Of a stretch of 39,305 nt of DNA, positions 4,651 to 39,302 are shown in pieces. Numbering within the stretch: the stretch's first letter is position 1; each line of letters starts with the position of its first letter. The notes beneath the pieces were generated by a model, which had not been told where the DNA came from, ran no database searches, and worked only from the letters and a program-made list of their open reading frames with translations. Origin of the DNA: Escherichia phage vB_EcoP_SP7; sequence record MT682707.1; one strand, written 5' to 3'. A program made the position numbers and the translations under genes.

Positions 4651-4679
4651 CCCTAACTCATTCAATCAGGAGCTACACC

Positions 4680-4859
4680 ATGTATCAGAACACTATCAAC
4701 TTCGAGCGCATCCGTGAACGTCAGCAGACTGAAGGTTACATTCCTAAGGGTCGCAAGCTGAACAAGACCAAACGTGGCGGTGGTGTCAAGGGTGCTTTCC
4801 GTAATGCTGAAGGTAAAGACTCTCTGGTTAACCAAGAGAAGTATTTCGTAGGAGCATAA
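4680..4859 (+). CDS. gp1.1-like small basic protein (59 aa)
   Basis: Contains KGRKLNKTKR, matching the recalled T7 gp1.1 motif; sits directly after promoter plus RNase III site as in T7. Confidence 0.6.
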   Translation: MYQNTINFERIRERQQTEGYIPKGRKLNKTKRGGGVKGAFRNAEGKDSLVNQEKYFVGA

Positions 4860-4863
4860 CCAA

Positions 4864-5127
4864 ATGGGCCGACTTTATAGTGGCAACCTCAACGCTTTCA
4901 AAGCAGCGTGTAACAGGCTCTATCAGTTAGACTTCGCTGTCATATCTCAAGAGTTTCAAGACCATGTGTCACGCCAAGAGTGCATGAAACTCAGGGTGGA
5001 GGACCGAGCTGGTAACATCTTCGCGCTTGAGACCTTCGCACACCACGATGAAGACGTACTGTACAACACTGCAACAGACTTCCTTAATGGTCTCGCTGAC
5101 CACCTCGACACATGGAGCAAATCATAA
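4864..5127 (+). CDS. gp1.2-like inhibitor of host dGTP triphosphohydrolase
   Basis: MGRLYSGNLNAFKAA..QLDFAVI..RVEDRAGN..HHDEDVLYN closely matches recalled T7 gp1.2. Confidence 0.85.
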   Translation: MGRLYSGNLNAFKAACNRLYQLDFAVISQEFQDHVSRQECMKLRVEDRAGNIFALETFAHHDEDVLYNTATDFLNGLADHLDTWSKS

Positions 5128-6233
5128 TGACTACGACTATTAAAACTAACCCGCACCGCGCTGTAGATTACTCTGAGTCCGGCGTTAAGAAAGCACTGGA
5201 AGCTGCCGGGTCACTGGAAGCTGAGGTGAAGTATGACGGTGTGCGCCTGAATCTCCCGGTCTTCCCGACAGGCGAGACCCAGTGGTTGAGCCGAGAGTCC
5301 AAGCCGCTTCCAGCCCTTGAATGGCTATCTGTCCTGACCAGCCTCGACAATATCGTGGAAGACCAGCAGCGCGCTAGCGACTGGCGGTGGTTCCTGAAGC
5401 AAGCTGGCTATGAGGGGACTGGCCTGATGGTTGATGGCGAGGTCATGGTGAAAGGGGTAGACTTCAACACATCCTCAGGTCTCATCCGAACGAAGTGGGT
5501 AAAGCAAAAGAACTTTGAGTTTTCAACTGGTGAGCACTGGGGTAAGAACTGGAAGAAAGAGAATCTACCGTTCTGTCTTGACAGGAAGCACATCAAGGTG
5601 GTCGTCTATGGTATCATCGACCTTAACGTCATCCTCGACCCGAAAGCCGAAGGTCCTATCCATAGCGTCACACGCCTGAAGGCCGAAGCTATCGTCCCTC
5701 TACTTCAGAAATACTTCCCGGAAATCGACTGGGTTCTGTCTGAGTCACACACGGTCTATGACCTTGAGTCGCTCAACTCCCTGTACGAAGAGAAGCGTCT
5801 GGAAGGACACGAGGGTCTGGTAGTCAAAGACCCACTTGGTAAATACAAGCGTGGTAAGAAGTCAGGCATGTGGAAAATGAAGCCTGAGGAGACAATTGAC
5901 GGGACCGTGTGTGGACTCGTGTGGGGGACTCAGGGTAAGGCCAACGAAGGCAAGGTCATTGGTTTTGAGGTTCTCTTGGAGGATGGCATGGTGGTTAACG
6001 CCTGTGGCCTGACTGAGGATCAGAAGGACGAGTTCACGGCAGAAGTATTTAACCGCAATGGGATTGACTCCCAGCGCGAGTACGAGGAATTGCTTTGTAT
6101 TGAGACTTTCAACCCTTACGGCGGGTGGCAGTGCGAGGTCCTCTTCATGGAGCGCTTCCCAGATGGTTCCTTACGTCACCCTAGCTTCAAGTGCTGGCGC
6201 GGGACGGAAGACAACCCTACCATTAAGAGCTAA
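5127..6233 (+). CDS. ATP-dependent DNA ligase (gene 1.3)
   Basis: IKTNP N-terminus, adenylation motif EVKYDGVR, and LMVDGEVMVKGVDFNTSSGLIRTKW match recalled T7 ligase. ATG at 5127 overlaps the gene 1.2 stop (track start 5112 is less likely). Confidence 0.95.
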   Translation: MTTTIKTNPHRAVDYSESGVKKALEAAGSLEAEVKYDGVRLNLPVFPTGETQWLSRESKPLPALEWLSVLTSLDNIVEDQQRASDWRWFLKQAGYEGTGLMVDGEVMVKGVDFNTSSGLIRTKWVKQKNFEFSTGEHWGKNWKKENLPFCLDRKHIKVVVYGIIDLNVILDPKAEGPIHSVTRLKAEAIVPLLQKYFPEIDWVLSESHTVYDLESLNSLYEEKRLEGHEGLVVKDPLGKYKRGKKSGMWKMKPEETIDGTVCGLVWGTQGKANEGKVIGFEVLLEDGMVVNACGLTEDQKDEFTAEVFNRNGIDSQREYEELLCIETFNPYGGWQCEVLFMERFPDGSLRHPSFKCWRGTEDNPTIKS

Positions 6234-6512: not shown

Positions 6513-6546
6513 ACGTCGAGTTCATCAACTCAAAGGAGTAAACACT

Positions 6547-6807
6547 ATGTCTAAGAACTTAATGTTCAACCGTTATTCCAATACCTTCCACCTGTCCCAC
6601 AACCCGTTCGCTTGCATTAAGCGTAACGAGAAGCTGGGATACTTCGGGAAGGCCGTTAAGCTGTCACCTACAGTCTACGCGCTGATTACTCCGGGCAAAG
6701 CTGAAGAGGCTCGCCAGAAGCGTGAGACCAACGTACCTGTGGTCTACACTAAGTGGCCTCGCGTCCGTCTGTTCGTTGAGTTCGTGAAGGAGGTGGTAAA
6801 TGATTAA
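6547..6807 (+). CDS. Hypothetical protein (86 aa)
   Basis: ORF with AAAGGAG RBS. Confidence 0.5.
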   Translation: MSKNLMFNRYSNTFHLSHNPFACIKRNEKLGYFGKAVKLSPTVYALITPGKAEEARQKRETNVPVVYTKWPRVRLFVEFVKEVVND

Positions 6808-11957: not shown

Positions 11958-14129
11958 ATGTTTGACCTTAAGAGTATCTGGGGTTCTGACATCGAGACAA
12001 ACGGTCTCCTTGATACAGTCTCCCAGTTTCACTGTGGGGTACTGATTAACGCCGAGTCGAATGAGACCCTTAAGTATGGGGTAGCTCCGATGGTCGGTAT
12101 CATCGGTGGCTTCAAAGAGTATGTTCATAAAGTGGAAGAGATTGCCGCATCACCTGATGGTATGCTGGTATTCCACAACGGTATCAACTATGACGTCCCT
12201 GCTATTGACAAGCTGAAACGTCTGTACCTTGGGAAACGCTTTAACTTCCCGAAACACAAGATGATTGATACATTGGTGTTGGGACGCTTGATGTATCCCA
12301 ACATTAAGTTCTCAGACATGGGCGCGGTGAAAGCGGGTCGTCTACCACCTAAGATGATGGGACGTCAGTCTCTTGAGGCTTGGGGCTATCGTCTTGGTGA
12401 GATGAAAGGTGAGTACAAACACGATTACGTTGCCAAGTGCAAGGCTGAAGGTATCGAATATAAGGCTGGGGACGAATGGTTGTTCCCATCTCAGGAGATG
12501 CTGGACTATAACGTTCAAGACGTTGTGGTCACACTGGAGTTGTTCAAGAAGTTCCTGACTGACAAGTATTACTTCCAGTCTGAACAGTTCGCTTTCGACC
12601 AGATTTATGCGTTGCGTCTGGAACATGATGCTGCGTGGACCTGTGCGAAGATGGAACGTAATGGCTATCCAATGAACACCGAGATGGTCGAAGGCTTATA
12701 TCGTGAACTCACCGTCAAACGTGCAGAGCTGCTGGACAAGCTGCGCTCGACTTTCGGTAGCTGGTACGCACCAAAGGGAGGCAAAGAGTTCTTCAAGCAC
12801 CCCAGGACAGGCAAGGACCTTCCGAAGTATCCGCGAGTCGTGTATCCTAAAATAGGTGGCATCTTTAAGAAGCCGAAGAACAAAGCTCAACGCTTAGGTC
12901 TTGAACCTTGTGAGCGCGATACGCGAGACACGATGGAGGGAGCACCGTTCACGCCTATAACTTACGTTGAGTTTAATCCGGGAAGCGGAGACCACTTAGC
13001 GAAAGTCCTGATGGAGCGTGGATGGGAGCCTGTAGACTTCACTGACACCGGGAAACCTGTAGTCGATGACGAGACGTTAGAACACGTTAAGTTACAAGAT
13101 GAAGAGGCTCAGGCTTGCGTAGAGCTGGTCCGCGAGTATCTGGTAGTCCAGAAGCGCATCGGTCAGGCGGCTGAAGGTAAGAACGCATGGTTGAAACTTG
13201 TAGGTCCAGACGGACGTATGCACGGTTCAATCAACCCATGTGGTGCAGTAACCGGACGTGCGACCCATAGTACACCAAATATGGCTCAGGTCCCGGCTAA
13301 CGGTGCCCCATACGGTGAGACTTGCCGTGGTGCTTTCGGTGCAGCGTGGAACAAGACTAACGGTGAGCCAGACCCTTGGCTTCAGGTTGGTGTGGATGCT
13401 TCAGGTCTTGAGCTTCGCTGTCTGGGGAACAGAGCGGCTCCGTTTGACGGTGGTGAATACGCCAAGACTGTGGTCGAAGGTGACATCCACTGGGCCAACG
13501 CAGTAAACGCTGGGTTAGCACCTAACGTCCAACGCGATAAGTCTAACCACGACCATGATGCTTTCCGTAATAACGCTAAGACGTTCATCTATGCGTTCCT
13601 GTATGGTGCCGGGGCCGCGAAGATTGGACTGATAGTTGGAGGTGGTAAGAAGGAAGGTTCAGCTCTCATGAAGAAATTCATTGAGGGTACACCAGCCATA
13701 AAGGACCTCAGGGAAGCTGTGCAGAACACGCTCATCTCAGAGTCGAAGTGGGTAGATGGTGAGAACATCGTGAAGTGGAAACGTCGCTGGCTGAAAGGTC
13801 TGGATGGTCGCCGCATTCACATCCGGTCGCCACACTCAGCACTTAACGCATTACTTCAGGGCGATGGTGCGGTAGTCTGCAAGCACTGGATGGTACTTAC
13901 TGAGAAGAAACTTGAAGAGGCTGGTTACGGTAACGGATGGGACGGTGATTTTGCGCTAATGGCTTGGATTCACGATGAATTGCAGATAGCGTGTCGTACT
14001 CAGGAGATAGCAGAAGATGTCGTCCGTATTGCTCAAGAGGCGATGCGTGAGGTCGGACGCTTCTATAACTTCAAGTGTGAACTTGATACGGAGGGTAAGA
14101 TTGGACCAACGTGGAAAGAGTGTCATTGA
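11958..14129 (+). CDS. DNA polymerase (gene 5), family A
   Basis: 3'-5' exonuclease motif DIETNGL and polymerase motifs (VTGRATHS, RDKSNHDHDAFRNNAKTFIYAFLYGAG, WIHDELQ) match recalled T7 DNAP. ATG 11958 has a GGAGG RBS; the track's 11922 start overlaps the RNase III site. Confidence 0.97.
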   Translation: MFDLKSIWGSDIETNGLLDTVSQFHCGVLINAESNETLKYGVAPMVGIIGGFKEYVHKVEEIAASPDGMLVFHNGINYDVPAIDKLKRLYLGKRFNFPKHKMIDTLVLGRLMYPNIKFSDMGAVKAGRLPPKMMGRQSLEAWGYRLGEMKGEYKHDYVAKCKAEGIEYKAGDEWLFPSQEMLDYNVQDVVVTLELFKKFLTDKYYFQSEQFAFDQIYALRLEHDAAWTCAKMERNGYPMNTEMVEGLYRELTVKRAELLDKLRSTFGSWYAPKGGKEFFKHPRTGKDLPKYPRVVYPKIGGIFKKPKNKAQRLGLEPCERDTRDTMEGAPFTPITYVEFNPGSGDHLAKVLMERGWEPVDFTDTGKPVVDDETLEHVKLQDEEAQACVELVREYLVVQKRIGQAAEGKNAWLKLVGPDGRMHGSINPCGAVTGRATHSTPNMAQVPANGAPYGETCRGAFGAAWNKTNGEPDPWLQVGVDASGLELRCLGNRAAPFDGGEYAKTVVEGDIHWANAVNAGLAPNVQRDKSNHDHDAFRNNAKTFIYAFLYGAGAAKIGLIVGGGKKEGSALMKKFIEGTPAIKDLREAVQNTLISESKWVDGENIVKWKRRWLKGLDGRRIHIRSPHSALNALLQGDGAVVCKHWMVLTEKKLEEAGYGNGWDGDFALMAWIHDELQIACRTQEIAEDVVRIAQEAMREVGRFYNFKCELDTEGKIGPTWKECH

Positions 14130-21493: not shown

Positions 21494-21536
21494 AAACCCC
21501 TTGGGTGCCTTCGGGTGCTTGAGGGGTTTTTTGCTT
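21494..21536 (+). terminator. T-phi-like terminator for phage RNAP (also intrinsic-terminator-like)
   Basis: AACCCCTTGGGTGCCTTCGGGTGCTTGAGGGGTTTTTTG: GC-rich hairpin plus U-tract, very similar to recalled T7 T-phi and in the same position after gene 10. Confidence 0.85.
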
Positions 21537-21553
21537 AAAGTGAGAGGAGACTT

Positions 21554-22120
21554 ATGGCTCAATACATTCCACTGAATGCTAACGATGACTTAGATGCCAT
21601 CAACGATATGTTAGCCGCTATCGGTGAACCAGCAGTCCTACAGCTTGACGAGGGGAACGCTGACGTCTCGAACGCTCAACGTATCCTGCATCGTGTCAAT
21701 CGTCAGGTCCAAGCTAAAGGCTGGAACTTTAACATCAACGAAGCTGCTGTCCTGACACCTGACATCCAAGACAATAGGATTCGATTCTTGCCGTCATACC
21801 TTCGTGTAATGACCGCTGGGGCCACCAGCTACTACAGCAACATGGGTGGGTACCTGTACGACCTGTCCACCCAGTCAACCACTTTCACCGACCCTATCAC
21901 GGTAGAGCTTGTGGAGATGAAGCCATTCTCCGAGATGCCTGTGGTATTCAGGGACTACATCGTAACTAAAGCTAGCCGTGAGTTCAACGCTAAGTTCTTC
22001 GGGAGCCCAGAGTCAGAGATATACCTTCGTGAGCAGGAAGCAGAACTCTATCAGCAGGTTATGGAGTACGAGATGGACACTGGTCGCTACAACATGATGT
22101 CTGACATCGGGAGGGACTAA
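21554..22120 (+). CDS. Tail tubular protein A (gene 11)
   Basis: RILHRVNRQVQAKGWNFNINE, GGYLYD, YIVTKASREFNAKFFG..E.E, EYEMD.GRYNM match recalled T7 gp11. Confidence 0.95.
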   Translation: MAQYIPLNANDDLDAINDMLAAIGEPAVLQLDEGNADVSNAQRILHRVNRQVQAKGWNFNINEAAVLTPDIQDNRIRFLPSYLRVMTAGATSYYSNMGGYLYDLSTQSTTFTDPITVELVEMKPFSEMPVVFRDYIVTKASREFNAKFFGSPESEIYLREQEAELYQQVMEYEMDTGRYNMMSDIGRD

Positions 22121-24790: not shown

Positions 24791-25273
24791 ATGTATATTC
24801 GCAAGGCTACGGAACCAGATGTCCAATACTTTCTGTGTCATCTTTCAGCAGATGATGTTAATGAGTGCAAAGCAAACTATGGGACAACAGTTGGTCTCTC
24901 TGAAAGACTGCTTAAGCACCTATCTCCGTCATCTGTGGTTTTAACGAACGGTGTAGGCGAAGTGTTCGCCTATGGTGGAAACCAAGGGGACAACGTATGG
25001 TTCTTGACTTCCGGTCTGGTCCACAAGCTGAGACCTAAAGAGAAGCGAGAGTTCATAAAGCGTATCTCTGAGTACAGGGACTTAATGTTAGACCAATACG
25101 GGACCATCTGGAACTACGTGTGGTCAGGCAATAAGTCTCACATTAAATTCTTGAAGTTGCTTGGGGCTAAGTTCCATGATGATTGGACTATCAGCCCGGT
25201 AACTGGTGAGCGTTTTCAATTATTCACTATCTCTAAGGAGGACGTATGTGTGAACCAGTATCCATCGGTCTAG
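24791..25273 (+). CDS. Internal virion protein A (gene 13)-like
   Basis: Position between the promoter and gene 14; ORF with AAGGAG RBS. Sequence homology not verified. Confidence 0.55.
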   Translation: MYIRKATEPDVQYFLCHLSADDVNECKANYGTTVGLSERLLKHLSPSSVVLTNGVGEVFAYGGNQGDNVWFLTSGLVHKLRPKEKREFIKRISEYRDLMLDQYGTIWNYVWSGNKSHIKFLKLLGAKFHDDWTISPVTGERFQLFTISKEDVCVNQYPSV

Positions 25274-25844: not shown

Positions 25845-28127
25845 ATGGCTAGTAATATTGAATCAGCTCTGGCTAATCGGACTATGGGTCGTGGCAGAGC
25901 ACCGGGTAAAACTATCGCCGTCAACTATCAAGCAGCCAACGTTCAGGCTCCGACTGGTGACTCCGGTCTGGCTCGTGCATTAACCAACTTCGTTGAGTCT
26001 GGGACTGGATTATACAAGCAGTTCAAGGACGAGGAGAAGACCAGAGCTGACGAGCGGTCTAACGAGATTATCCGTAAGTTGACGCCTCAGCAGAGACGTG
26101 AGGCTATCCAGAACGGTACACTGCTGTATCAGGATGACCCTTACGCTATGGAAGCACTTCGAGTCAAGACTGGTCGCAATGCTGCCTTTGCTGTAGACGA
26201 CGAGATTAACGTTAAGATTCAGAATGGTGAGTTCCGCACACGTCAGGAAATGGAAGAATATCGCCACCAGCGACTTCAAGACGCAGCTAAGTCCTATGCT
26301 GAAGAGGCTGGTATCAATCCTACAGACGAGTTCTTCCAGCGTGGATTTAACGATAATATCACTGACCGAAACATCGCTATCTACGGGTCATTCAATAAAT
26401 ATTTCAGCAAGCAGTCTGAAGAGACGGCAATGTTGAATACTCGAATTGAGATGAACTCGTTCCTGAACGATGGGGACCTAATGCGTTCACCTGAAGCTGG
26501 TAAGACCTTCATGGCCTACCTTCGGGATGGACTGACTACTGCTTCTATCCCTTCGGACCAGCGAGCACGAGAGGTCATCACCCAGACTGTCCGTGACGCA
26601 ATCCAGAAGTCAGGAGGCTCAAACTTCCTACAGCAAGTCCGTGGTGAGCGTATCAACCTTAACGGTGTCGATGCTACCGTAGAAGAGATTGTAGGACCTG
26701 ACGTCTTCAATGCTGCTATGGTAGAGGCTCAAGGCACTGAGTACAAACTGGTGGCTAAATATCAGGAAGACTTAGCGCTTGGAGTTCAGTCTGCTATTCT
26801 TCAGGATGACCCAACCATCGGTCTGGCCCAGATTCAGAAGCTAAAGGAGCAGAACAACCTGCTTCAACCGGGTGAAGAACTCACACCTCAGCGTCAGATG
26901 CTTATTAATGCCGAAGCCAGCCTACTGGAAGCGGTCAAGCGTAAGTCTGCTGAACAGGCAAAGGAGAACACTAAGTTAATCCAGACCCAGAACAAGCAAC
27001 TGGTCATCGACCAAGTGTATCAGCGACGTCTGGCTGGGGACAACGTGTCAACCAACTATGAGGACCTTCCTGTCTCTGAGGCTACAGGAGAGTTCAAACG
27101 TTCAGACATGAACAACTATGCGTCTGCCAAGCTACAGCAGATTGACCAGATGGACATCCCTGAGGCCACTAAGGACGCTCAGAAGGTGGCATTGTTAAGG
27201 GCTGACACTAACAACGGTCCGTTCCGTAATGCCTTCCAGACGCTGACTCAGGACGCTGCTGGTGAGTGGCAAGCTGCTGTCATCCGTGGACAGTACGACC
27301 CAGACAAGATGAAACGCTTCGAGTCTCTTCGTCGTGCCTACACTCAGGACCCTTCAAGTTTCGCTGCTCTGTATCCTGACCAAGCTCAGTTGTTCTCTAC
27401 GTTCGACCAGATGGACAAGATGGGTCTTGACCCTCAGACGATGATTGAAGCTGATAAGCAAGCTGCAAGTCAAAGCCGTGAGATGCGCATGGAGTCAGAC
27501 AAGGCGTGGCAGGAGTTGAAGAACGACTCCAAGAACACCCAGTTGTCTCGTCTCCCAACGTCTCTTGACTCAAGTGCTCGTAAGGTCTGGGACTCATGGT
27601 ACTATCGTACAGGTAACGCTGACGCTGCAACTCAGCAGACTCAACGCTGGCTGAATGAGAACACCGTAACGTTCCAGTCTGAAGGTTCTGACGGTAAGTC
27701 CATCGGCATGGTGTCAAAGCACCAGCTTATGGTTGGGGATAACCCAGAGTCGTGGCAGGTTGGTCGAGACATTATCGACACAGCTCGTCAGCAGCTCATT
27801 AAGGCCAACCCTTGGGTAGTGAACTCTCAGTTGTCCGTTGTTGAACAGAACGGCTCTATCTTCCTCCAAGACGCTACGGGGACTATTCGTATTCGCTACG
27901 ATAAAGAACTTGTAGGTAAACTCTACCGAGAACAACAGCAGAAGGCACAAGATGCCGCATATGCTCAGGCAGAACGTGACGCTAACAAGCGAGCGCGTAT
28001 CGTCGGGACTAAAGCTGCTGGTGACAAACGTCGAGCTGACCGAGAGTCCAACATCGAGAAGCGCGGTGGGATGTACAATGACGTCTCACTGGAGGGTATC
28101 GCAAACGTACTAATCGGTAAGGAGTAA
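25845..28127 (+). CDS. Internal virion (core) protein C (gene 15)
   Basis: ADERSNEIIRKLTPQQRREAIQNGTLLYQDDPYAMEALRVKTGRNAAF, MEEYRH.RLQ, NENTGEFK.SDM.NYA, SNPW..N.QL and IRIRYDKEL match recalled T7 gp15. Confidence 0.95.
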   Translation: MASNIESALANRTMGRGRAPGKTIAVNYQAANVQAPTGDSGLARALTNFVESGTGLYKQFKDEEKTRADERSNEIIRKLTPQQRREAIQNGTLLYQDDPYAMEALRVKTGRNAAFAVDDEINVKIQNGEFRTRQEMEEYRHQRLQDAAKSYAEEAGINPTDEFFQRGFNDNITDRNIAIYGSFNKYFSKQSEETAMLNTRIEMNSFLNDGDLMRSPEAGKTFMAYLRDGLTTASIPSDQRAREVITQTVRDAIQKSGGSNFLQQVRGERINLNGVDATVEEIVGPDVFNAAMVEAQGTEYKLVAKYQEDLALGVQSAILQDDPTIGLAQIQKLKEQNNLLQPGEELTPQRQMLINAEASLLEAVKRKSAEQAKENTKLIQTQNKQLVIDQVYQRRLAGDNVSTNYEDLPVSEATGEFKRSDMNNYASAKLQQIDQMDIPEATKDAQKVALLRADTNNGPFRNAFQTLTQDAAGEWQAAVIRGQYDPDKMKRFESLRRAYTQDPSSFAALYPDQAQLFSTFDQMDKMGLDPQTMIEADKQAASQSREMRMESDKAWQELKNDSKNTQLSRLPTSLDSSARKVWDSWYYRTGNADAATQQTQRWLNENTVTFQSEGSDGKSIGMVSKHQLMVGDNPESWQVGRDIIDTARQQLIKANPWVVNSQLSVVEQNGSIFLQDATGTIRIRYDKELVGKLYREQQQKAQDAAYAQAERDANKRARIVGTKAAGDKRRADRESNIEKRGGMYNDVSLEGIANVLIGKE

Positions 28128-28131
28128 CATA

Positions 28132-31100
28132 ATGGCGACTCGTGGTATTCGCAATAACAATCCGGGTAACATCCGGGTAAGTAAGGACCAATGGGAAGGA
28201 ATGACTGGGGATGATGGTGCATTCGTCATCTTTGATAGTCCAGAGTCTGGCGTCCGAGCTTTAGGTAAAAACCTGCTGTCCTACGGTCGCCAAGGTTATG
28301 ACTCCATCGAGAAGATTATCAACAGATGGGCTCCTCCTAACGAGAACGACACTCAGGCTTATATTGACTCTGTGGTGGCTGCGACTGGTATTCCAGCTAC
28401 CCAGAGTCTCGACCTCTCGAACCCGGACACCCTGTCTTCTCTGGCTCAAGCTATCAGCTTCCATGAGACAGGCTCCCGGTACAATCCTGAAGTATATCAG
28501 AAGGGAGTCGCACGAGCACTAAACGGTATCAGCCCAAAGACTCCACCAGTAAGCGCTAACGTAGTTGACGCACTCACGGAAGGACTCAAGGCTAAACCTA
28601 AAGTAGCTCTGGGAGAGAACCTTCCGACCGCTGCTGGTCTGAACATTGAGGGTCAAGCACCTGAAGCTCCAAACGAATCGTTCGGTGAGATGTTCTATAA
28701 GGCTACTGGCGAGACAATGCAGGAACGAGATGACCGCTCTACGTGGTTCGGCTTCGGGGCGGCTACAGAAGCTGAAGTGAAGAACTCTATGGTCGGCGTG
28801 GCTATCCGCGCTGGTCAGACCGAGGACTCACTTGATGTAATTGGCGATGTGTTCAACCCGACCCGCTGGAACAACCATAAGTGGACTCGTGAGGAGCTGG
28901 ACCAGATTCGTAACGCTGGGGTTCTGCCTCAGTATTACGGAGTCATTACTGGTGGCTCTCCTCAGAACCTGACCGAGCTGATTAACTTGGCGCTTGAGAA
29001 CCAGAAGTTGGATCAAGAGAAGGCCAAGGCCGGTATTGGTGCTCAGTTAGCTGCTGGCGTGATTGGTGCTGGTGTAGACCCGCTGACCTACGTTCCTATC
29101 GCTGGACAGGTTGGTAAGGGTGGTAAGCTGGTCAACAAGATGTTCACCGTGGCTGCTCAATCTGGAGCGCTGGCTGGTGTGTCTGAGATGGCTCGTACCT
29201 CAGTGGCTGGTGGTGATGCTCATGTGGCTGAAGCTATCCTCGGAGGTGCTCTCTTCGGGGGCGGAATGACCGCTATCGCTGACGGCTTAGGAAGAGCCTT
29301 AGGTCGCAACACTAACGAGTTCGCTGGCCCGGCTACACGTCTGGAAGCCCGTGAGACTGCTCGTAACGTTGATGGTCAGGACCTGTCTCGTCTCCCTATT
29401 CAGGAAGGTGAGCAGACCTTTAGTCATCAAGGCGTTAAGTTCGCTGACGTTCAGAATGAGCCGGGTAGTGTACGACTGGAGGATGGTTCAATCCTGATTG
29501 GTGAGAACCCTCTGAACCCTAAGACACGTCAGGTCTTTGACGAAGTGATTGAGCCTGAACGCGCAGCCGCTGGTGTTAACCTTGGGGGGCTGACTGAGAT
29601 TGGCCTGAAGCTGCTTCGGTCAGAGAACCCTGAGATTCGTGGAGTCGCTGCTGACTTAGTGCGTTCACCGACTGGTATGCAGTCAGGAGCCTCAGGTAAA
29701 ATTGGGACCACTGCGTCAGACGTGTTCGAGAGACTTCGTGCTGTGGACCATCGGTTCTACAACGACATCGACGATGCTGTTACTGAGGCACTCAAGGACC
29801 CCTACTTCCAGACAGCATTCTGGCGAGACTCTGGCGCATTCCGTCAGGACATCTACCAGCGTGTGTCTATGGCTATTGAAGATGTAAGTGGGAACCTGAA
29901 GGCTGAACTGACTCCGGGAGAACTGAAAGTCTATGACCTGCTGAAGAATCAGTTTGACGCAAAGCGTGAGATGATGGAGAACCCAGCTATGTTTGGTCGT
30001 CCAGACGCTAAGTCTATCTTCCCCGGCAGTCGCTTCAAGGGAACCTACGTCCCGCATGTGTATAGCAATCAGATGAAGGAGCTGTACATCAAGGAGCTTG
30101 GAAGCCCAGAGGCACTACAGGAGGCCATCAAGAAGTCATGGTTGACCAGCTATGCGTCTCGACCTGAAGTCAAGAAACGTGTGGACGAGGCACTCTTAGA
30201 GGCTGACCCTACGTTGACTCCAGATGGACTTGCTGCTGCGGTCTATAAGTACGCTAACGATAAGGCTTACGGTATCTCTCACACCGAGCAGTTCGAGCGT
30301 TCATCCGTAATGGAAGAGAACATCAATGGTCTGGTGGGTTTGGAGAACAACAGCTTCCTTGAGGCTCGTAACCTGTTTGATAGCGATATGTCAATCGTTC
30401 TGCCGAACGGTCATACCTTCAGTGTCAACAATCTGCGTGAGTGGGACATGGATAAGATTGTCCCTGCTTATAACCGTCGAGTTAATGGTGACATTGCTAT
30501 CATGGCTGGTACAGGAAAGACTACGAAGGAAATGAAGGATTTAGTTGAGACCATGATGAATAAGGCTGGTGATGATGGAAAGTTGAAAGGTGAGGTATCT
30601 ACCTTACGTGACACCCTGAAGATTCTAACTGGTCGTGCTCGACGTGATGGCGCTGATGATGCGGCCTTCGCTACCGTGATGCGCACGATGACAGACCTAT
30701 CGTTCTTCGCTAAAAATGCCTACATGGGTGTGCAGAACTTAACGGAGATTGGTGGTATGCTGGCTCGTGGTAACGTTCGTGCATTGCTACATGGAGTTCC
30801 TATGTTCCGTGACCTAGCCTTCCGTAACAAGAAGGTAGGGGCCTCAGAGATTAAGGACCTGCACAATGTTATCTTCGGTAAGGAACTGGACGACTCAATC
30901 CGCCCGTCTAAACAGGATGTCATCGACCGTCTGCGGTCTTACAGTGACCTCGGTCGTGGTGCAGCCACAGCTCTGGGGACTGCCAAGTATTACACTGGTG
31001 AACTTGCAGTACGCTCGCCGTTCACTAAAGTCCTCAACGGTACGACAAACTACCTGTTAGATGCTGGACGTCAAGGCTTCCTGTCTGACATCGTGGAGCA

Positions 31101-32019
31101 TAGTCTGACTGGCAGTAAGCGTCGGTTCGATGACCGCTGGCTGAAGACCGCTGGTATCTCTGACGAGCAGTGGAAGGGCATTAAGTCCCTAATCCGTGAG
31201 TCAGTGACTCGTGGTCCAGACGGGAAGTACACCATCAAGGATAAGAAGGCGTTCAGTCAGGACCCAAGGGCTATGGACTTATGGCGTATGGGTGACACCA
31301 TCGCTGATGAAACGTTACTACGTCCTCATAAGCTGTCCAACATGGATGCAAAGGCTTATGGTCCTCTCGCTAAGACTGTCCTTCAGTTTAAGAACTTCGT
31401 CATCAAGTCCATCAATGGGCGTACCATGCGAACCTTCTATAACGCCACGAAGAACAACCGAGCGATGGATGCTGCTCTGTCCACTGTGATGTCTATGGGC
31501 CTTGCTGGTATCTACTACATGGCTCAGGCACACATCAAGGCTTACGCTATGCAGGATGGTCGTGACCGTGACTACCTCAAGCAAGCTCTTGACCCGACGA
31601 TGATTGGTTACGCGGCTCTGTCCCGTAGCTCACACTTGGGTGGGCCACTTGGGGTAGCTAACATTCTGGGTGGCATCGCTGGGTATGAGGACACCAAGAT
31701 GCTCCGTTCGTCTATACTACCTCGTTCGCCTACAGAGAAGCCTGAACGTGCCATCTCGTATGGTGCAGCTACAAGTGACCCTGTGATGAATGTCGTCGGT
31801 AACTTCTTGGAGCAGGTTCCAGCTTTCGGATATGCTGCTAACGTTGGCGCTTCGGCTTACAACTTGGCTGGCTACCTCAAGGCGGATACTCGGGTAAACG
31901 AGAGAGACTACATGACCGGGATGTATAACACCTTCCGTGAACTGGTTCCGAACGACCCACTTACTCAGAAGTTGCTACTGGGAACGTTTGAGGAGCAAGG
32001 TATCCACATCAAGGACTAA
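28132..32019 (+). CDS. Internal virion protein D (gene 16) with a non-T7 N-terminal domain
   Basis: Residues after about 250 are collinear with recalled T7 gp16 (RLEARETARN, DLVRSPTGMQSGASGK, FLEARNLFDSD, RRVNGDIAIM, FFAKNAYMG.QN.TEI.GM, WTK.LNGTTNYLLDA, DPTMI..AALSRSS, ELVPNDPLTQ). The first ~130 aa (GIRNNNPGNIR...) differ from the T7 SLT-type lytic transglycosylase module. Confidence 0.95.
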   Translation: MATRGIRNNNPGNIRVSKDQWEGMTGDDGAFVIFDSPESGVRALGKNLLSYGRQGYDSIEKIINRWAPPNENDTQAYIDSVVAATGIPATQSLDLSNPDTLSSLAQAISFHETGSRYNPEVYQKGVARALNGISPKTPPVSANVVDALTEGLKAKPKVALGENLPTAAGLNIEGQAPEAPNESFGEMFYKATGETMQERDDRSTWFGFGAATEAEVKNSMVGVAIRAGQTEDSLDVIGDVFNPTRWNNHKWTREELDQIRNAGVLPQYYGVITGGSPQNLTELINLALENQKLDQEKAKAGIGAQLAAGVIGAGVDPLTYVPIAGQVGKGGKLVNKMFTVAAQSGALAGVSEMARTSVAGGDAHVAEAILGGALFGGGMTAIADGLGRALGRNTNEFAGPATRLEARETARNVDGQDLSRLPIQEGEQTFSHQGVKFADVQNEPGSVRLEDGSILIGENPLNPKTRQVFDEVIEPERAAAGVNLGGLTEIGLKLLRSENPEIRGVAADLVRSPTGMQSGASGKIGTTASDVFERLRAVDHRFYNDIDDAVTEALKDPYFQTAFWRDSGAFRQDIYQRVSMAIEDVSGNLKAELTPGELKVYDLLKNQFDAKREMMENPAMFGRPDAKSIFPGSRFKGTYVPHVYSNQMKELYIKELGSPEALQEAIKKSWLTSYASRPEVKKRVDEALLEADPTLTPDGLAAAVYKYANDKAYGISHTEQFERSSVMEENINGLVGLENNSFLEARNLFDSDMSIVLPNGHTFSVNNLREWDMDKIVPAYNRRVNGDIAIMAGTGKTTKEMKDLVETMMNKAGDDGKLKGEVSTLRDTLKILTGRARRDGADDAAFATVMRTMTDLSFFAKNAYMGVQNLTEIGGMLARGNVRALLHGVPMFRDLAFRNKKVGASEIKDLHNVIFGKELDDSIRPSKQDVIDRLRSYSDLGRGAATALGTAKYYTGELAVRSPFTKVLNGTTNYLLDAGRQGFLSDIVEHSLTGSKRRFDDRWLKTAGISDEQWKGIKSLIRESVTRGPDGKYTIKDKKAFSQDPRAMDLWRMGDTIADETLLRPHKLSNMDAKAYGPLAKTVLQFKNFVIKSINGRTMRTFYNATKNNRAMDAALSTVMSMGLAGIYYMAQAHIKAYAMQDGRDRDYLKQALDPTMIGYAALSRSSHLGGPLGVANILGGIAGYEDTKMLRSSILPRSPTEKPERAISYGAATSDPVMNVVGNFLEQVPAFGYAANVGASAYNLAGYLKADTRVNERDYMTGMYNTFRELVPNDPLTQKLLLGTFEEQGIHIKD

Positions 32020-32037
32020 ACTATCACTATAGGAAAC
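32015..32037 (+). promoter_or_regulatory. Phage-RNAP promoter (phi17 position)
   Basis: ACTAAACTATCACTATAGGAAAC; +1 at 32032, followed by a GGAGAC/GTCTCC hairpin at 32038..32059. Confidence 0.85.
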
Positions 32038-32082
32038 GGAGACGCTACCATAGGTCTCCATTTAAATCACAAAGGAGGCATA

Positions 32083-34269
32083 ATGTCCACGATTACACAA
32101 TTCCCCACAGGAAACACTCAGTACAGGATTGAGTTCGACTACCTATCCAGAACGTTTGTTGTTGTTACGCTGGTGAATAGCTCTAACCCTACCCTGAACC
32201 GTGTACTGGAAGTTGGTCGAGATTACCGATTCCTTAATCCAACGATGATTGAGATGTTGGCTGACCAATCAGGTTTCGACATCGTTCGTATTCACCGTCA
32301 GACTGGAACTGACTTAGTGGTAGACTTCAGAAATGGCTCAGTGTTGACAGCCAGTGACCTGACCAATGCAGAGCTTCAGGCTATCCATATTGCAGAAGAG
32401 GGTAGGGACCAAACGGTTGACTTAGCGAAGGAATATGCTGATGCTGCTGGTACCTCTGCCGGTAACGCTAAGGATAGCGAGGACGAAGCACGACGAATCG
32501 CTGAGGATATCAAGGCATCTGGTCGAATTGGCTATATTACCCGTCGCTCCTTCGAGAAAGGCTTCAACGTTATAACATGGAACGAGGTACTGCTATGGGA
32601 AGAGGATGGTGAGTATTACCGTTGGGATGGTACGCTTCCAAAGAACGTTCCTGCTGGTTCAACTCCTGAAACTTCCGGTGGGATTGGAGTAGGTGCGTGG
32701 GTTCTCGTAGGTGATGCTTCACTTCGTAGCGCACTAGCTTCTGAAGCAGGGGCATCAATGGTGTCCCGGAACGGCTCACCCCTAGGCAGAATCATTCGTG
32801 CGTCACTCTTCGAATACCTTACCGAATCAGATCAGCAAGCATTACTTACTACTTCTGGAGCAGTAGTTGCAGCGGATTATGCGTTAAAAGCCGCTATAGC
32901 TGCTGGAGTTATGGTCCTTGATATACCACGGAACATGGGGATTATTGAACTTGGTAGAGATCCAGCGACGCTTCCATTGGGGTTCTCGCTTATAGGATGG
33001 GGCTGCCGTCGACCTTATACTGTATCAGATGACAGTAGCTTCCTTAATTGCGGGGTAGTTATCCGCGTAGCAGCTGGGGCAAGTTTTCCTTTTTATTCAA
33101 CTGGTCGTCATGTGTTCCGGGATATTGTTTTTGACGGGCGAGATAAAACAACGTATCTTTTTTATTCCACAGATAGGTATACTGAGTTCAACGGTACTCG
33201 ACTAGAGGGGTGCGGAATTTATCGTTTTGCTATTGGTATTGGTTGGAATATTGGAGGAGTATCAAGGTACATTGCAACAGTAAAAGCTCATTTCTGTTCA
33301 ATATCTGGAAACGGGGACGGAGTTAAGAATTTAATAGACTCTATGATGATTGGTTGCACAATCAATGCCAATGACCGAGGCGTAGCTCTTGTCGGCGGGG
33401 CAAATAGTAACTTTTTCGGAGGATGCCGGAACGAATGGAACGCTGGTGATAACTGGTATGCGTATGAATCAATAGAAAACCAGATTTCAGGTGAACTGTG
33501 CGACAGAGCTGGGCGAGGCGGGGTAGTTGCTGGCAAGGATTCGTCATGGATTGTAACCGGAGTTGTCGTCGCTCGCAGTGGTGCTAATCAACCAATGAAT
33601 GATAACTACTCAGCAAACTTTGTTATTATTGATAACGGTAAAATCGTAATCTCTGGGGTGAGAACCAGAAACGGAGCTAACGAGTGGGGTCAGGGTGGGA
33701 CAAATTCTCCATCGTTTAACGTATCGGTTCTTGGTTCTGGTAATGGGACACTCCTGGTATCTGGAAGTGATATGACCGGTTTTGTTACTTCGGCAATTAA
33801 CCAGAAGGCTCCTACATTAAATAAAGCTATAACCGGAAATCTCGGTATGGATGATGATGTAAATGTTGGAATGTCTCAGGTTATTAAAGGAAGACGGATT
33901 ATTGGTTCACAGTCATCAGGTAGATTGCAAGACGCTGTGGGAGCAACGTTATCATTCACTAAGCCCAATATTGCGCAAGATTTATATGGTACATACGTCA
34001 CCAGAGCCATATTGATTGAGTGTAGAATTGGCAATACTGCACAAGGTGATTATATAAAAATACCTATAGGGGTAAGGCACGAAAACAATTTCTATCTTGA
34101 TATCATCACCAGCGGAATTGTTGCAAGCTCTGGAAGGATTGGCCTTTCAGGAACGGGGGTTACTGTTAGCTTATCTATTGATAGCGCAACGGGTGCCATA
34201 TCAGTCGTGTTAACTAGCGTTGATGGGCTGGTGAGAGATGTTAATGTCTCTTTACTACCATCAATGTAA
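32083..34269 (+). CDS. Tail fiber/tailspike (gene 17): T7 gp17-like N-terminal adaptor domain fused to a non-T7 putative beta-helix depolymerase/receptor-binding module
   Basis: N-terminal ~150 aa match recalled T7 gp17 ([47 protein letters not shown]). The rest is unrelated, Gly/Asn/Ser-rich with beta-helix-like repeats, and its coding DNA (about 33000..34270) is visibly AT-rich relative to the genome. Confidence 0.9.
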
Positions 34270-34387
34270 GAGTGAGAACGGAAGTCGAAACAGAACTGGT
34301 GGTTGTGGAGGTAGAGGCTAACTATACGCTGACCAACGTATGTAATAACTTTGGGTCACGGACGACCCGCTTTAAACTGGAGGTTTT

Positions 34388-34582
34388 ATGATTGAGTTAG
34401 ACTTCAAGAATGAGGTCCTTAAAGCCTCTCCTATCGTCGGGACCGCTGCGGCTGATGGTGCCAGTCGGTTCTTCTTCGGGCTCACACTTAACGAATGGTT
34501 CTACGTTGCAGCTATCGCGTACACCGTTGTCCAGATTGGTGTGCTAGTCTATAAAACGATTAAAGGAGGTGGTAAAACATGA
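34388..34582 (+). CDS. Holin, class II (gene 17.5)
   Basis: DFKNEVLKASPIVGTAAADGASRFFFGLTLNEWFYVAAIAYTVVQIG matches recalled T7 gp17.5. Confidence 0.9.
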   Translation: MIELDFKNEVLKASPIVGTAAADGASRFFFGLTLNEWFYVAAIAYTVVQIGVLVYKTIKGGGKT

Positions 34583-34842
34583 CGCAGATGGACTTAGAGA
34601 AGTTCCTCTTAATGCTGGATACTGAACGTGCTCGACTCATGCTGCAAGACCTGCGGGATGACTCTAAGCGTTCACCTCAGCTCTACAACGCCATTGAGAA
34701 GCTGCTTGCTCGTCACAACTTTGTGTTAAGCAAGGTGTCTGTTGACGAGAAGACTCTGGCTGATATGGAGGCCCTGAACGCAGAGTACGATAAGGTGCTC
34801 TCAGCTACGGAAGATAATGACACTGGGTATGGAGTGCAGTAA
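34579..34842 (+). CDS. Terminase small subunit (gene 18)
   Basis: FLLMLDT..A..ML.DL.....RSPQLYNAI motif and position match recalled T7 gp18. Confidence 0.85.
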   Translation: MTQMDLEKFLLMLDTERARLMLQDLRDDSKRSPQLYNAIEKLLARHNFVLSKVSVDEKTLADMEALNAEYDKVLSATEDNDTGYGVQ

Positions 34843-34855
34843 ATCTCTTAAGTGT

Positions 34856-34900
34856 TAGACTCAAGGTCATTACTATATGTAGTGGCCTTTATGGTTAACA
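34856..34900 (+). promoter_or_regulatory. RNase III processing site (R18.5-like)
   Basis: TAGACTCAAGGTCATTACTATATGTAGTGGCCTTTATGGTTAACA; conserved element in the same position as T7 R18.5. Confidence 0.7.
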
Positions 34901-34952
34901 CTAACTAGTGGAGGCGACTCTACGTGAAATCTGATAAACCGGGAGGGCAACT

Positions 34953-35402
34953 ATGCTCGAATTTTTAAAGAGAGCGGCTCCGTGGTTACTTGCAGCAGTG
35001 ATGTTTGCTGGTGGCTACCACACCGCTAACAATAAGTGGGAGGCTAAGGTCAATGCAGAATACACCTCGAATCTTAAGGCATCGGAAGATACAAGGCTTG
35101 CTGTCCAAGCTGAAGTCAACAAGGTGTCCAAACGGTTTCAGGACGAAATGTCCTCGCTGGAAGGCAGCACTGATAGGATTATTGCTGACCTTCAGTCTGA
35201 CAATAAGCGGTTGCGCATCCGAGTCAAACCAACGAGTGGAACCACGCAAAGTGACGGTCGATGCGTCATTGATGGTTACGCCGAACTTGACGAACGAGAT
35301 GCTAAACGTCTTATCTCCATCGGACTGAAAGGGGACGCTTGGATTAAGACCCTTCAGGACACTGTGAGAGCCTTGCAGCAAGAGAGGGGGAGTAATGATT
35401 AG
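34953..35402 (+). CDS. Rz-like i-spanin (gene 18.5)
   Basis: MLEFL N-terminus with a transmembrane segment, then LEGSTDRIIADLQSDNKRLRIRVK and DERDAKRLI..KGDAWI..LQDT matching recalled T7 gp18.5. Confidence 0.85.
   Translation: MLEFLKRAAPWLLAAVMFAGGYHTANNKWEAKVNAEYTSNLKASEDTRLAVQAEVNKVSKRFQDEMSSLEGSTDRIIADLQSDNKRLRIRVKPTSGTTQSDGRCVIDGYAELDERDAKRLISIGLKGDAWIKTLQDTVRALQQERGSND
35053..35328 (+). CDS. Rz1-like o-spanin lipoprotein embedded in the +1 frame of Rz (start uncertain)
   Basis: +1 frame ORF inside Rz with a lipobox-like LTISGC followed by ASES...SLMV.PNLT.EMLNV; start chosen at the internal ATG 35053, but 35005 is also possible. Confidence 0.4.
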   Translation: MQNTPRILRHRKIQGLLSKLKSTRCPNGFRTKCPRWKAALIGLLLTFSLTISGCASESNQRVEPRKVTVDASLMVTPNLTNEMLNVLSPSD

Positions 35403-35565
35403 AGTTAAATGCTTAAAGACTGACTCAAATGGGATTCTTGAGGTGGGTTCAGTCTACTGGGTTGACTCGCTTGAAGACATTGACTCCTATGTGCATATTA
35501 GAGGAGGGCGATACATTGGTATGTTCCCATCTAAGTGGTTTGAGCCTAAGGAGGAGAACCATTGA
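35395..35565 (+). CDS. Small hypothetical ORF (56 aa) bridging the Rz stop and the terminase start
   Basis: ATG overlaps the Rz stop; ORF ends 1 nt after the TTG start of gene 19. No T7 counterpart known to me. Confidence 0.3.
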
Positions 35566-37780: not shown

Positions 37781-38019
37781 CGCAATCGTGGTAACGATTC
37801 ATGAGCGGAAGACCTAAGGTCAGTACGTGGATAAAGACTCACTCTACTGACCTTAGCTACTGTAGTCAAGGACTTTAGGTAACACCTTAAGAGAAGCTCA
37901 CTTAGGGTCATCCTACTTATTGGTCTATCCTAGTGTCGCCTGACCTACGGTCCTTGACCTACAGTGGCTGTGGCCTACAGTAGTGACGATGAGTTTTGGA
38001 CCAAAAGTTTGAGACCACA

Positions 38020-38217
38020 TCTCACAGTTCAAGAACCTCAAGTCTCCCCATAGGCCCTCTTTCAGTCCAGACCAAAGGCCCTACCCAGTCTATCATAAGG
38101 TTGGACCGATGGTCAATACTTCAGGTCAACGATAGGTATAGGCTATGGCTGGAGGTCAGGACGATAGGTAGGGACTATGGGTCTTCTCTGAGTCTCTATC
38201 TGTATCAGACCTTTGAG
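38020..38217. repeat. Putative terminal-repeat region with the genome left end near 38020 (one copy, as expected in a circularised or concatemer-derived assembly)
   Basis: TCTCACAGT...TCCCCATAGGCCC resembles the recalled first bases of the T7 genome (TCTCACAGTGTACGG...CCCCCATAGGGGG); TCTCTATCTGTA near the distal end resembles the T7 ATCTGTT element; flanked by CCTACAG-type short repeat arrays on both sides as in T7. Confidence 0.45.
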
Positions 38218-38218
38218 T

Positions 38219-38277
38219 CACTACCTACAGTCTAACTACCTACAGTCTAACTACCTACAGTCTAACTACCTACAGTC
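38219..38277. repeat. 15-bp tandem repeat array (CTACCTACAGTCTAA, about 3.7 copies), with further CCTACAG copies to about 38330
   Basis: Directly visible; analogous to the short repeat arrays flanking the T7 terminal repeat. Confidence 0.85.
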
Positions 38278-38436
38278 ATCGACCATCGGTAATGCCGCTA
38301 CCTACAGTCAGAGACCTACAGTTAATAGACACAAAGGATATAGACTTAATGTCTAAGACATGTTAGTCAAAGATTATATCCTCTTACACCATGGGGGGCC
38401 GATGCTAGCTCAATCAATATTATTTCAAATTACCTA

Positions 38437-38465
38437 TTGACTATAGGTATCGACTATGGCTTAAT
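38437..38465 (+). promoter_or_regulatory. Candidate sigma70 early promoter (A1-like)
   Basis: TTGACT, 17-nt spacer, CTTAAT; the spacer contains CTATAGG as the T7 A1 spacer does. Confidence 0.45.
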
Positions 38466-38577
38466 AGCTTCCGTCAACACGACACGGCAACAACCGGATA
38501 GTGAAGACGCCTGGTCATCCCGGTCAAGTAGACAGCCTGATAAGTCATACGAAAAACAGGCAGATGACAGAAAGCAG

Positions 38578-38606
38578 TTGACAAGAAGTAAGACTTAAAG
38601 TAGTAT
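38578..38606 (+). promoter_or_regulatory. Candidate sigma70 early promoter (A2-like)
   Basis: TTGACA, 17-nt spacer (AGAAGTAAGACTTAAAG), TAGTAT; the upstream GTAGACAGCCTGATAAGTC..CGAAAAACAGG closely matches the recalled T7 early promoter region. Confidence 0.6.
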
Positions 38607-38731
38607 GAGTCACCAAGCAGTACAGCGAGCCGGAACTGATAACTACATCGGCTATGCGGAGTGACCAGCGCGAATATCTGGTCTAATGAGTAAGGCGGTA
38701 GGTTACTACAGCAAGCGAGTTAAGAAAGTGA

Positions 38732-38760
38732 TTGACAAGCTGGTTTGACTGTAGTAACTT
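38732..38760 (+). promoter_or_regulatory. Candidate sigma70 early promoter (A3-like), weak -10
   Basis: TTGACA, 17-nt spacer, TAACTT. Confidence 0.35.
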
Positions 38761-38830
38761 ATACGACAAGCAAGATTAGTGAGTCCCAACACTGAAACGG
38801 GATAGCACGGCGACGACAGCCAATGCGAAT

Positions 38831-38843
38831 GCTCTTTAACAAT
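38831..38843 (+). promoter_or_regulatory. boxA-like element in the early leader
   Basis: GCTCTTTAACAAT matches the E. coli rrn boxA core and the equivalent T7 leader sequence (recalled). Confidence 0.6.
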
Positions 38844-38882
38844 CTGGACAAACTCTTAATGTGCGCCGATAGCGACTAACTA

Positions 38883-38914
38883 CAGGGTCTTTGAGTCTAC
38901 ATCTAAAGGCCCTG
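38883..38914 (+). promoter_or_regulatory. Stem-loop upstream of gene 0.3 (R0.3-like candidate RNase III site)
   Basis: CAGGGTCTTT...AAAGGCCCTG inverted repeat about 45 nt upstream of the ocr start. Confidence 0.45.
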
Positions 38915-38960
38915 ACTGATAGTCACTAACATACACAAACAACTTTGAGAGGATATAGCT

Positions 38961-39302
38961 ATGGAACGTAACGCTAACGCATACTATGAGCTGCTGGCTG
39001 CAACTGTTGAAGCATTTAACGAGAGCATTCAGCATGACGAAATAGCTGAAGGTGACGACTACAGCGATGCGCTGCACGAAGTCGTAGAAGGTATGGTTCC
39101 GCATTATTACCACGAGATTTTCACGGTGATGGCTGCTGATGGTATTGACCACGAGTTCGAAGACTCTGGGCTGATGCCTGAGACCAAGGACGTAACGCGT
39201 ATACTACAAGCCCGAATCTATGAGGCGCTTTATAACGACGTGTCTAATAGCTCGGATGTGGTCTGGTTTGAGGATGAAGAGAACGACGAAGAGGACTGCT
39301 AG
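38961..39302 (+). CDS. ocr: Ocr-like DNA mimic, anti-restriction protein (gene 0.3)
   Basis: [43 protein letters not shown] closely matches recalled T7 Ocr; acidic C-terminus; first early gene downstream of the host-type promoters. Confidence 0.9.

Follow-up and report, generated by a model that had tools for sequence, protein, structure and literature searches.

A fused tailspike at the gene 17 position

The window analyzed here is a 39,305-nt stretch of Escherichia phage vB_EcoP_SP7 (MT682707.1), which sequence comparison places as a T7-like genome of the genus Kayfunavirus. A tailspike gene occupies the gene 17 position of its T7-like late operon (Table 1), with internal virion protein D on one side and a class II holin and the small terminase on the other, as in Klebsiella phage SEA1f and Kayfunavirus CLB_P1. 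The task that CLB_P1 divides between gp17 and gp17.1 falls in SP7 to one fused protein, and the SP7 genome has no second spike gene. The tailspike gene is preceded by a motif resembling phage RNA-polymerase promoters. At three mismatches or fewer over the whole SP7 genome, this motif (ACTATCACTATAGG) occurs in nine copies, all on the + strand, against a chance expectation of 0.02; by analogy with T7-like phages, these copies may act as promoters. A scan for sigma-70 promoters and terminators near the tailspike gene returned background levels only.

Table 1. Features of the SP7 tailspike locus; positions are those of the window
Feature	Position	Strand	Basis or remark
Phage RNA-polymerase promoter-like motif ACTATCACTATAGGAAAC	32020..32037	+	45 nt upstream of the tailspike start codon
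Tailspike gene (gene 17 position)	32083..34269	+	ORF, ATG start, 728 aa
T7 gp17-type N-terminal adaptor, putatively docking the trimer on the tail (aa 10-114)	32110..32424	+	Pfam PF03906
Ala/Asp/Glu-rich connector (aa 115-152)	32425..32538	+	Read from the sequence
Tail_spike_N domain (aa 153-211)	32539..32715	+	Pfam PF18668
Alpha-helical cap/neck of the imported module (aa 214-276)	32722..32910	+	Model helices, module residues 2-60
Left recombination junction (aa 217-222)	32731..32748	+	Just after conserved motif VGDASLRS
Right-handed parallel beta-helix, putative catalytic domain (aa 277-588)	32911..33846	+	
Stretch with D419, E451, D474 and R498; motifs NLIDS, CTINAN, GANSN, RNEWN and ELCDRAG	33337..33576	+	Candidate active-site residues
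C-terminal beta-sandwich, 'pouf-like' domain (aa 598-728)	33874..34266	+	Model strands, module residues 385-512
29 nt of 3' flank moved along with the module	34270..34298	+	Homology past the stop codon

The SP7 tailspike is a known kind of protein, and its annotation already exists in GenBank for a near-identical phage. Its counterpart there, with 99.1% nucleotide identity, is orf043 of Klebsiella phage SEA1f (WPH66108.1, GenBank OR287805), annotated 'tailspike protein with depolymerase domain', whose product also has 728 residues, the same architecture and genomic position, and a module 99.4% identical in protein sequence. We considered whether the tailspike is unusually conserved between the two phages and rejected this, as the entire late region (26-35 kb) is 98.4% identical. 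The genomes differ more in the left 25 kb of SP7, where identity to SEA1f drops to 95.4% (and identity to E. coli Kayfunaviruses is ~93%), and by a 163-nt segment at 35384-35546 that is extra in SP7. Our literature search turned up neither biochemistry nor a capsule type for SEA1f, and no usable host K-type for SEA1f, VLCpiS11a/S10a or SBP, the latter phages carrying relatives of the module described below.

Conserved anchor domains

The protein opens with a T7 gp17-type adaptor. Pfam PF03906 (Phage_T7_tail) matches aa 10-114 with 60.1 bits (cut-off 25.2, E 2.6e-16), and the T7 gp17 PDB chains 7boz, 8dsp, and 8e4g align with aa 6-116 (E ~1e-16), to which the likeness to T7 gp17 is limited. The original prediction, made from the sequence without database searches, had extended the gp17 match over the first ~150 residues; both PF03906 and the T7 chains confirm the match but shorten it to ~115 residues. 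A non-enzymatic T7-type fiber with a gp17 shaft and tip was thus rejected, because the T7 alignment ends at aa 115-116 and the C-terminal part is a beta-helix; collinearity of the whole protein with such a fiber, which the same prediction had named as the observation that would speak against it, is not seen with T7 gp17. The connector that follows yields a sub-threshold LEA_4 match as its sole Pfam signal, and is kept in Kayfunavirus gp17.

The second anchor domain is Tail_spike_N, matched by Pfam PF18668 at aa 153-211 with 71.7 bits (cut-off 25, E 5.5e-20). PDB chains 4oj5, 5w6f, 5w6h, and 9occ align with aa 147-232; the domain, of the G7C gp66 type, is common to the CBA120 TSP1/3/4 structures (4oj5, 5w6f, 5w6h), where it is N-terminal. 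Moreover, aa 1-226 are ~95% identical to a solved Kayfunavirus-type spike, 9vvr_A, whose entry was deposited with 18 chains, equivalent to six trimers. Residues that had been described as a short linker lie at aa 178-217, and the PF18668 match together with the identity to 9vvr_A places them in a folded, conserved domain instead. We found no Pfam match at E <= 1 to a sialidase beta-propeller or a Peptidase_S74 chaperone anywhere in the tailspike, and a K1F-type endosialidase tailspike, as known from Kayfunaviruses, was rejected since K1-type Kayfunaviruses resemble the gene over nt 1-640 only.

Fold and candidate residues of the C-terminal module

For aa 214-728, neither Pfam nor NCBIfam has a matching model. 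An AlphaFold2 monomer model of this region, built from a 58-sequence alignment of family representatives, reached a pLDDT of 94.4 and a pTM of 0.87, and runs from a helical cap through a long succession of short strands into a C-terminal beta-sandwich. Foldseek aligns the model with the Kp9 gp42 structure (7xy1) at a TM score of 0.85, so that the beta-helix anticipated from the sequence is now supported by structure prediction. When the family profile was compared with solved structures, 7xy1 was the only full-length match; two further matches (CBA120 TSP3, E ~7e-06) are confined to an N-terminal stretch. The structural neighbors include the beta-helix tailspikes of CBA120, Sf6, HK620, and Det7. 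The cap/neck sequence is kept in all carriers of the module, and the strands of the terminal beta-sandwich align with the C-terminal domain of 7xy1.

Four residues, D419, E451, D474, and R498, are invariant across 58 family members whose identity to the SP7 module is 21-94%. They are separated by 32, 23, and 24 residues, approximately one helix turn each, and in the model each sits at a strand end. Such spacing and position would suit residues stacked rung after rung along the beta-helix, an arrangement that is inferred. Their conservation marks all four as candidates for a catalytic role; D419, E451, and D474 would be the likely catalytic or substrate-binding acids, and a glycoside hydrolase mechanism would be more likely than a lyase. 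For Kp9 gp42, catalytic residues have not been reported, and we found no mutagenesis in the consulted parts of the DepoCatalog and Kp7/Kp9/Kp11 papers.

A family of Klebsiella capsule depolymerases

The module belongs to a family of 208 clusters at 50% identity, and Klebsiella phages account for 95 of the 100 phage records that match it. Compared on its own, as the original prediction had proposed, the C-terminal module proved homologous to the recombinant K25 depolymerases S2-2 of phage K64-1 (35.4% identity, E 4e-65) and gp300 of FBKp24 (KP24gp300; 35.2% identity, E 2e-58), and it matches PHROG 6518 at E 1e-123. The Webervirus SF_KL25 spike (~66%) and the Drulisvirus K25PH129C1 and SU552A spikes (45-48%) are also relatives, more distant than the carriers described below, and our search turned up no characterisation of any of these three; a Kp9 gp42-like protein is ~29% identical.

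In DepoCatalog, S2-2 and KP24gp300 (both targeting K25), 184_43 and FKANgp232 (both KL111), and KLEO13gp10 (K22/K37/KL111) make up Class 1B, the five 'pouf-like' classical depolymerases (PMC13385381). There, all five specificities are described as assigned experimentally with recombinant enzymes, in the study itself or in the literature; the authors also suggest that the active site, with its conserved motifs, lies between subunits, and tie the C-terminal domain to substrate range (PMC13385381). The motifs NLIDS, CTINAN, GANxN, RNEWN, and GELxDR are common to the SP7 module, Kp9 gp42 and the Class 1B enzymes, among them the recombinant KL111 depolymerases 184_43 and FKANgp232. The SP7 module also shows the fold of the class, in which a right-handed parallel beta-helix leads into a C-terminal beta-sheet domain that runs parallel to it, along with the homology to active members (S2-2, FBKp24 gp300) and to PHROG 6518. 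The Class 1B depolymerases, including Kp9 gp42, are only 29-36% identical to the SP7 module and differ in their N-terminal anchors; at such identity, their specificity is not transferable to it.

The DepoCatalog supplements, searched by accession and by name, held no enzyme closer than these ~35% relatives, and we found no measured activity for the SP7 tailspike or for any relative more than 48% identical. The suggestion that the module may be an uncharacterised depolymerase holds in its noun, through the homology to recombinant S2-2 and KP24gp300, and fails in its adjective, as a 99% identical SEA1f gene is annotated and the family has characterised members; the term applies to the substrate alone.

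Carriers, borders and composition of an imported cassette

Behind unrelated N-terminal anchors, the module recurs in four other phage lineages at 77-91.5% nucleotide identity and in E. coli prophages at ~75%. The phages are Escherichia phage vB_EcoP_SP5M (Gamaleyavirus, Schitoviridae; 91.5%), Klebsiella phage SBP (a Jedunavirus, with baseplate and sheath-initiator genes annotated beside the spike; 89.8%), VLCpiS11a (Guernseyvirinae; 78.5%), and VLCpiS10a (unclassified, 60 kb; 77.2%). Prophages of E. coli and K. pneumoniae encode proteins of 694 or 720 residues, found on hundreds of contigs, with 77% amino-acid identity. Among six carrier proteins, SP7 included, mutual module identity is 71-94%. 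SP5M, an N4-like phage with a 72.9 kb genome whose record gives Escherichia as host genus, encodes a tailspike (QLF80674.1) that is 94% identical to SP7 over the module in protein (91.5% in nucleotides) and has Tail_spike_N, the 3' flank, and GC3 in common with it, but bears another N-terminal anchor without the gp17 adaptor.

The borders of the shared segment are sharp. Up to nt 32730, the backbone part of the SP7 gene shows 94-95% nucleotide identity to gp17 of E. coli Kayfunaviruses; what follows is unrelated to them, in agreement with the mosaic tailspike that had been predicted. Homology to CLB_P1 stops at 32730, while that to S10a begins at 32738 and that to SBP and S11a at 32749; the SP5M match reaches further left, to nt 32617, because SP5M also carries Tail_spike_N. 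The left crossover thus lies in or just after VGDAxLR, a motif conserved on both sides, at the end of Tail_spike_N. On the right, homology to SP5M, SBP, S11a, and S10a extends 27-29 nt beyond the stop codon, to 34296-34298; the junction falls at 34299-34300, and Kayfunavirus homology is back at 34301. From these borders on both sides, we delimit the imported cassette to ~32731-34300 (1.57 kb). It would have entered a Kayfunavirus backbone by recombination within the conserved ...VGDAxLRxxLxSExGA... seam on the left and by a right crossover 29 nt beyond the stop codon.

The base composition of the module is deviant in SP7. Its GC content is 0.444, against 0.505 (sd 0.015) over the 681 other SP7 windows of the same length (z = -4.0), and it falls below every one of them (their minimum is 0.451); over 33000-34270, the part of the gene originally described as visibly AT-rich, it is 0.434. 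GC3 is 0.346, compared with 0.560 +/- 0.046 (minimum 0.464) in the other 20 long SP7 ORFs. The AT-richness is therefore real and beyond chance, and as it is largest at silent sites, amino-acid composition alone fails to explain it. Residue counts likewise support the description of the C-terminal region as rich in Gly, Asn, and Ser: the C-terminal 515 residues contain 13.0% G, 9.7% S, and 6.6% N, against 8.9%, 6.6%, and 5.2% in the N-terminal part. Across all carriers, module GC stays at 0.44-0.475, with flanking genomes ranging from 0.43 to 0.56. Only in SP5M does it fit its surroundings (0.439 vs 0.434), where GC3 is 0.340 in a flanking genome of 43.4% GC; S10a shows a modest gap (0.474 vs 0.436). 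A phage of ~44% GC, similar to the Gamaleyavirus SP5M, is the probable donor, although GC cannot prove the direction of transfer. Occurrence of the cassette in five phage lineages and in prophages, together with its deviant GC3 in SP7, upholds the proposed horizontal acquisition.

The arrangement, in which a conserved attachment head carries a module gained by horizontal transfer from a known capsule-degrading family, is an ordinary one. Receptor-binding proteins of Klebsiella phages have this as their standard build, a conserved anchor and an exchangeable depolymerase module meeting at a conserved seam, and the title of one published paper (PMC6872550) is on this subject. The SP7 tailspike offers a clean case of a well-described process, in which receptor-binding modules are swapped at a conserved seam between unrelated phages.

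Proposed function

Overall, we put at roughly 85% the probability that the tailspike is the only receptor-binding protein of this Kayfunavirus, and that its module is a capsule-binding and capsule-cleaving beta-helix enzyme which sets host range and was imported by recombination. The tailspike would form trimers, six of which probably dock on the tail via the gp17-type adaptor (aa 1-115) and Tail_spike_N (aa 153-211). The C-terminal 512 residues, comprising the beta-helix enzyme and the beta-sandwich end domain, would then bind the surface polysaccharide of the host, most likely a Wzy-type (group 1, Klebsiella-type) capsule, and processive cleavage of that capsule would let the virion tunnel to the outer membrane. 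The imported module would in this way set host range and, as the host-range determinant, would decide the strains against which the phage could be used.

The genomes of E. coli bearing prophage homologues bear on the nature of the polysaccharide. Such a homologue is present in 69 of 5426 complete E. coli genomes. In strain WCHEC035148, we identified a Klebsiella-type K locus comprising galF, a PAP2 phosphatase gene, wzi-wza-wzb-wzc-wcaJ, a hypothetical gene, three glycosyltransferase-like genes, a gene for a beta-helix protein, wzx, gnd, and ugd, and its type-specific 6.2 kb recurs at >=99% identity in 126 of the 5426 genomes. Counted among the 91 K-locus genomes and 64 prophage-bearing genomes listed, at least 39 of the 64 share the WCHEC035148-type locus where ~1.5 are expected by chance, a statistic that the clonal ST410 and ST361 lineages inflate and that concerns a homologue only 77% identical to the SP7 module. 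In NZ_CP029369.1, the K locus at issue in ST410/ST361 isolates occupies 1,784,225-1,803,099. The overlap spans differing O-antigen loci, O8-type in WCHEC035148 and O9-type in strain ST361. Strain ST540 is an exception, having the prophage homologue but a different Klebsiella-type K locus.

These same genomes supply an argument for an O-antigen as the substrate, namely the polymannose O8/O9 of E. coli, the counterpart of O5/O3 in Klebsiella. All three prophage-homologue hosts inspected carry O8- or O9-family wzm/wzt/wbdA loci, so that O-antigen and capsule are confounded as possible targets, and the beta-helix tailspikes of CBA120, Sf6, HK620, and Det7, structural neighbors of the module, cleave O-antigens. 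However, the association of O8/O9 strains with group 1 capsules is a classical one, and the co-occurrence is therefore expected from confounding. Moreover, the structures of O8 and O9 differ, yet one homologue is found with both; every characterised family member acts on capsule (K25, KL111, K22/K37); the family is dominated by Klebsiella phages; and the K-locus association is strong. We regard O-antigen cleavage as improbable, and retain capsule as the favored substrate.

A module that only binds its receptor, as a non-catalytic beta-helix fiber, is less probable still. It draws on the closest solved structure, Kp9 gp42, a trimer in 7xy1, which was inactive in the single assay reported. That assay used the K2 capsule, which is not cognate for Kp9 gp42, and a 98% identical twin, tspA192, confers KL111 tropism. 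The family members 184_43, FKANgp232, KLEO13gp10, KP24gp300, and S2-2 are active enzymes, and the invariance of the three acidic residues at 21-94% identity argues for conserved chemistry. Least probable of all, and very unlikely, is an old resident gene of the lineage whose low GC reflects the amino-acid and codon needs of a beta-helix: the module's richness in Gly, Ser, Asn, and Ile and its constant GC whatever the carrier genome's would suit that account, but the deviation is greatest at third codon positions, E. coli Kayfunaviruses whose N-terminal parts are 94-95% identical have unrelated C-terminal parts, the cassette is shared with a Schitoviridae phage across sharp borders that include the 29 nt of 3' flank, and the data contradict a module evolving in step with the Kayfunavirus backbone and absent from unrelated phages.

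Candidate capsule types and host range

Given an enzyme acting on capsule, the relatives of the module offer a lead to the type. Two phages named for K25/KL25 carry module relatives at 66% and 45% identity, and the two experimentally confirmed K25 enzymes, S2-2 and KP24gp300, are only 42% identical to each other; from these values, a K25-like capsule common to Klebsiella and some E. coli is a reasonable guess as the target of the SP7 module, and no more. Tentatively, the module may recognize one capsule type, perhaps K25/KL25-like, both in K. pneumoniae and in E. coli lineages whose group 1 capsules are of the Klebsiella type, although we hold this cross-genus reading to be less likely than its converse. 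Were it true, SP7, SP5M, SBP, S11a, S10a, and the prophages would form a cross-genus guild set by capsule rather than host species, and a single 1.57-kb swap would have taken a Kayfunavirus from E. coli to Klebsiella, or would let it infect both. Among E. coli, the candidates are the ST410 and ST361 clones, which are carbapenem-resistant; should the link to E. coli prove right, it would point to an enzyme that acts on group 1 capsules of high-risk E. coli clones. Once identified, the capsule type of the module adds one specificity to the catalogue of Klebsiella depolymerases.

In papers on ST410, ST361, and ST167 we found no name for the WCHEC035148 K locus, and a paper that predicts capsule types from Klebsiella lysogens yielded nothing usable for the module. 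We also considered KL124 as the identity of the shared E. coli K locus and rejected it, since the locus of the KL124 reference strain NZ_CP083869 carries rfbBADC and acyltransferase genes. Nor is the prophage copy part of the cps locus: the prophage sits at yecD/aspS, ~177 kb away.

The 3' border of the tailspike module and related receptor-binding loci

The imported tailspike module does not end with its reading frame, as the 29 nt 3' of the tailspike stop codon (window 34270-34298) were co-transferred with it. Three other carriers of the module or its homolog, phages VLCpiS11a and VLCpiS10a and an Escherichia coli prophage, share a small conserved ORF (59-62 aa) that begins 8 nt past the spike gene. 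In the window, the right-hand crossover lies inside the would-be start of this ORF, of which only a remnant therefore persists. The related Kayfunavirus CLB_P1, a phage of E. coli, divides the receptor-binding function between a short gp17 and a separate gp17.1, whereas the window encodes a single fused protein. The Klebsiella-type K locus of E. coli NZ_CP029369.1, associated with the prophage homolog, carries its own parallel beta-helix gene amid glycosyltransferase genes.

Coordinates of features in the window and comparison loci
Feature	Source	Position	Strand	Description
Small ORF 3' of spike	VLCpiS11a (L005)	6515-6703		
Small ORF 3' of spike	VLCpiS10a (L006)	6541-6729		
Small ORF 3' of spike	E. 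coli prophage (L007)	21519-21698		
gp17 and gp17.1	CLB_P1 (L004)	3001-5279		gp17, 326 aa (adaptor + Tail_spike_N); gp17.1, 431 aa
Beta-helix gene	E. coli NZ_CP029369.1 K locus (L010)	12825-13949		'right-handed parallel beta-helix repeat-containing protein'
Small ORF in SEA1f-absent segment	Window	35395..35565		56 aa
ACTATCACTATAGG copies	Window	1049, 4592, 7487, 16373, 19197, 20196, 24744, 32020, 37425	+	Motif match

Genome mosaicism, promoter-like motifs and composition

Set against SEA1f, the Klebsiella phage with a near-identical tailspike, the window is itself mosaic, and identity differs by region: 95.4% across the early and middle region (window 1-25000), approximately 98.4% across the late structural block (26000-35400), and approximately 95% in the terminase region. 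Homology to SEA1f stops near 38049 in the locus compared because the SEA1f record ends there. A segment of approximately 163 nt between the Rz and large terminase genes (35384-35546) is missing in SEA1f.

The motif ACTATCACTATAGG occurs nine times in the window (at most three mismatches), each time on the + strand, against a chance expectation of 0.02. These copies look like promoters for the phage's own RNA polymerase.

Two further compositional features were observed. The ORF at 24791-25273 has the lowest overall GC among the long ORFs, the tailspike excepted (0.449), despite a normal GC3 of 0.516. Near the right end, window 38001-39000 forms a second low-GC stretch (GC 0.44-0.456), and the GC skew of -0.149 at 38001-38500 is the sole clearly negative value in the window.
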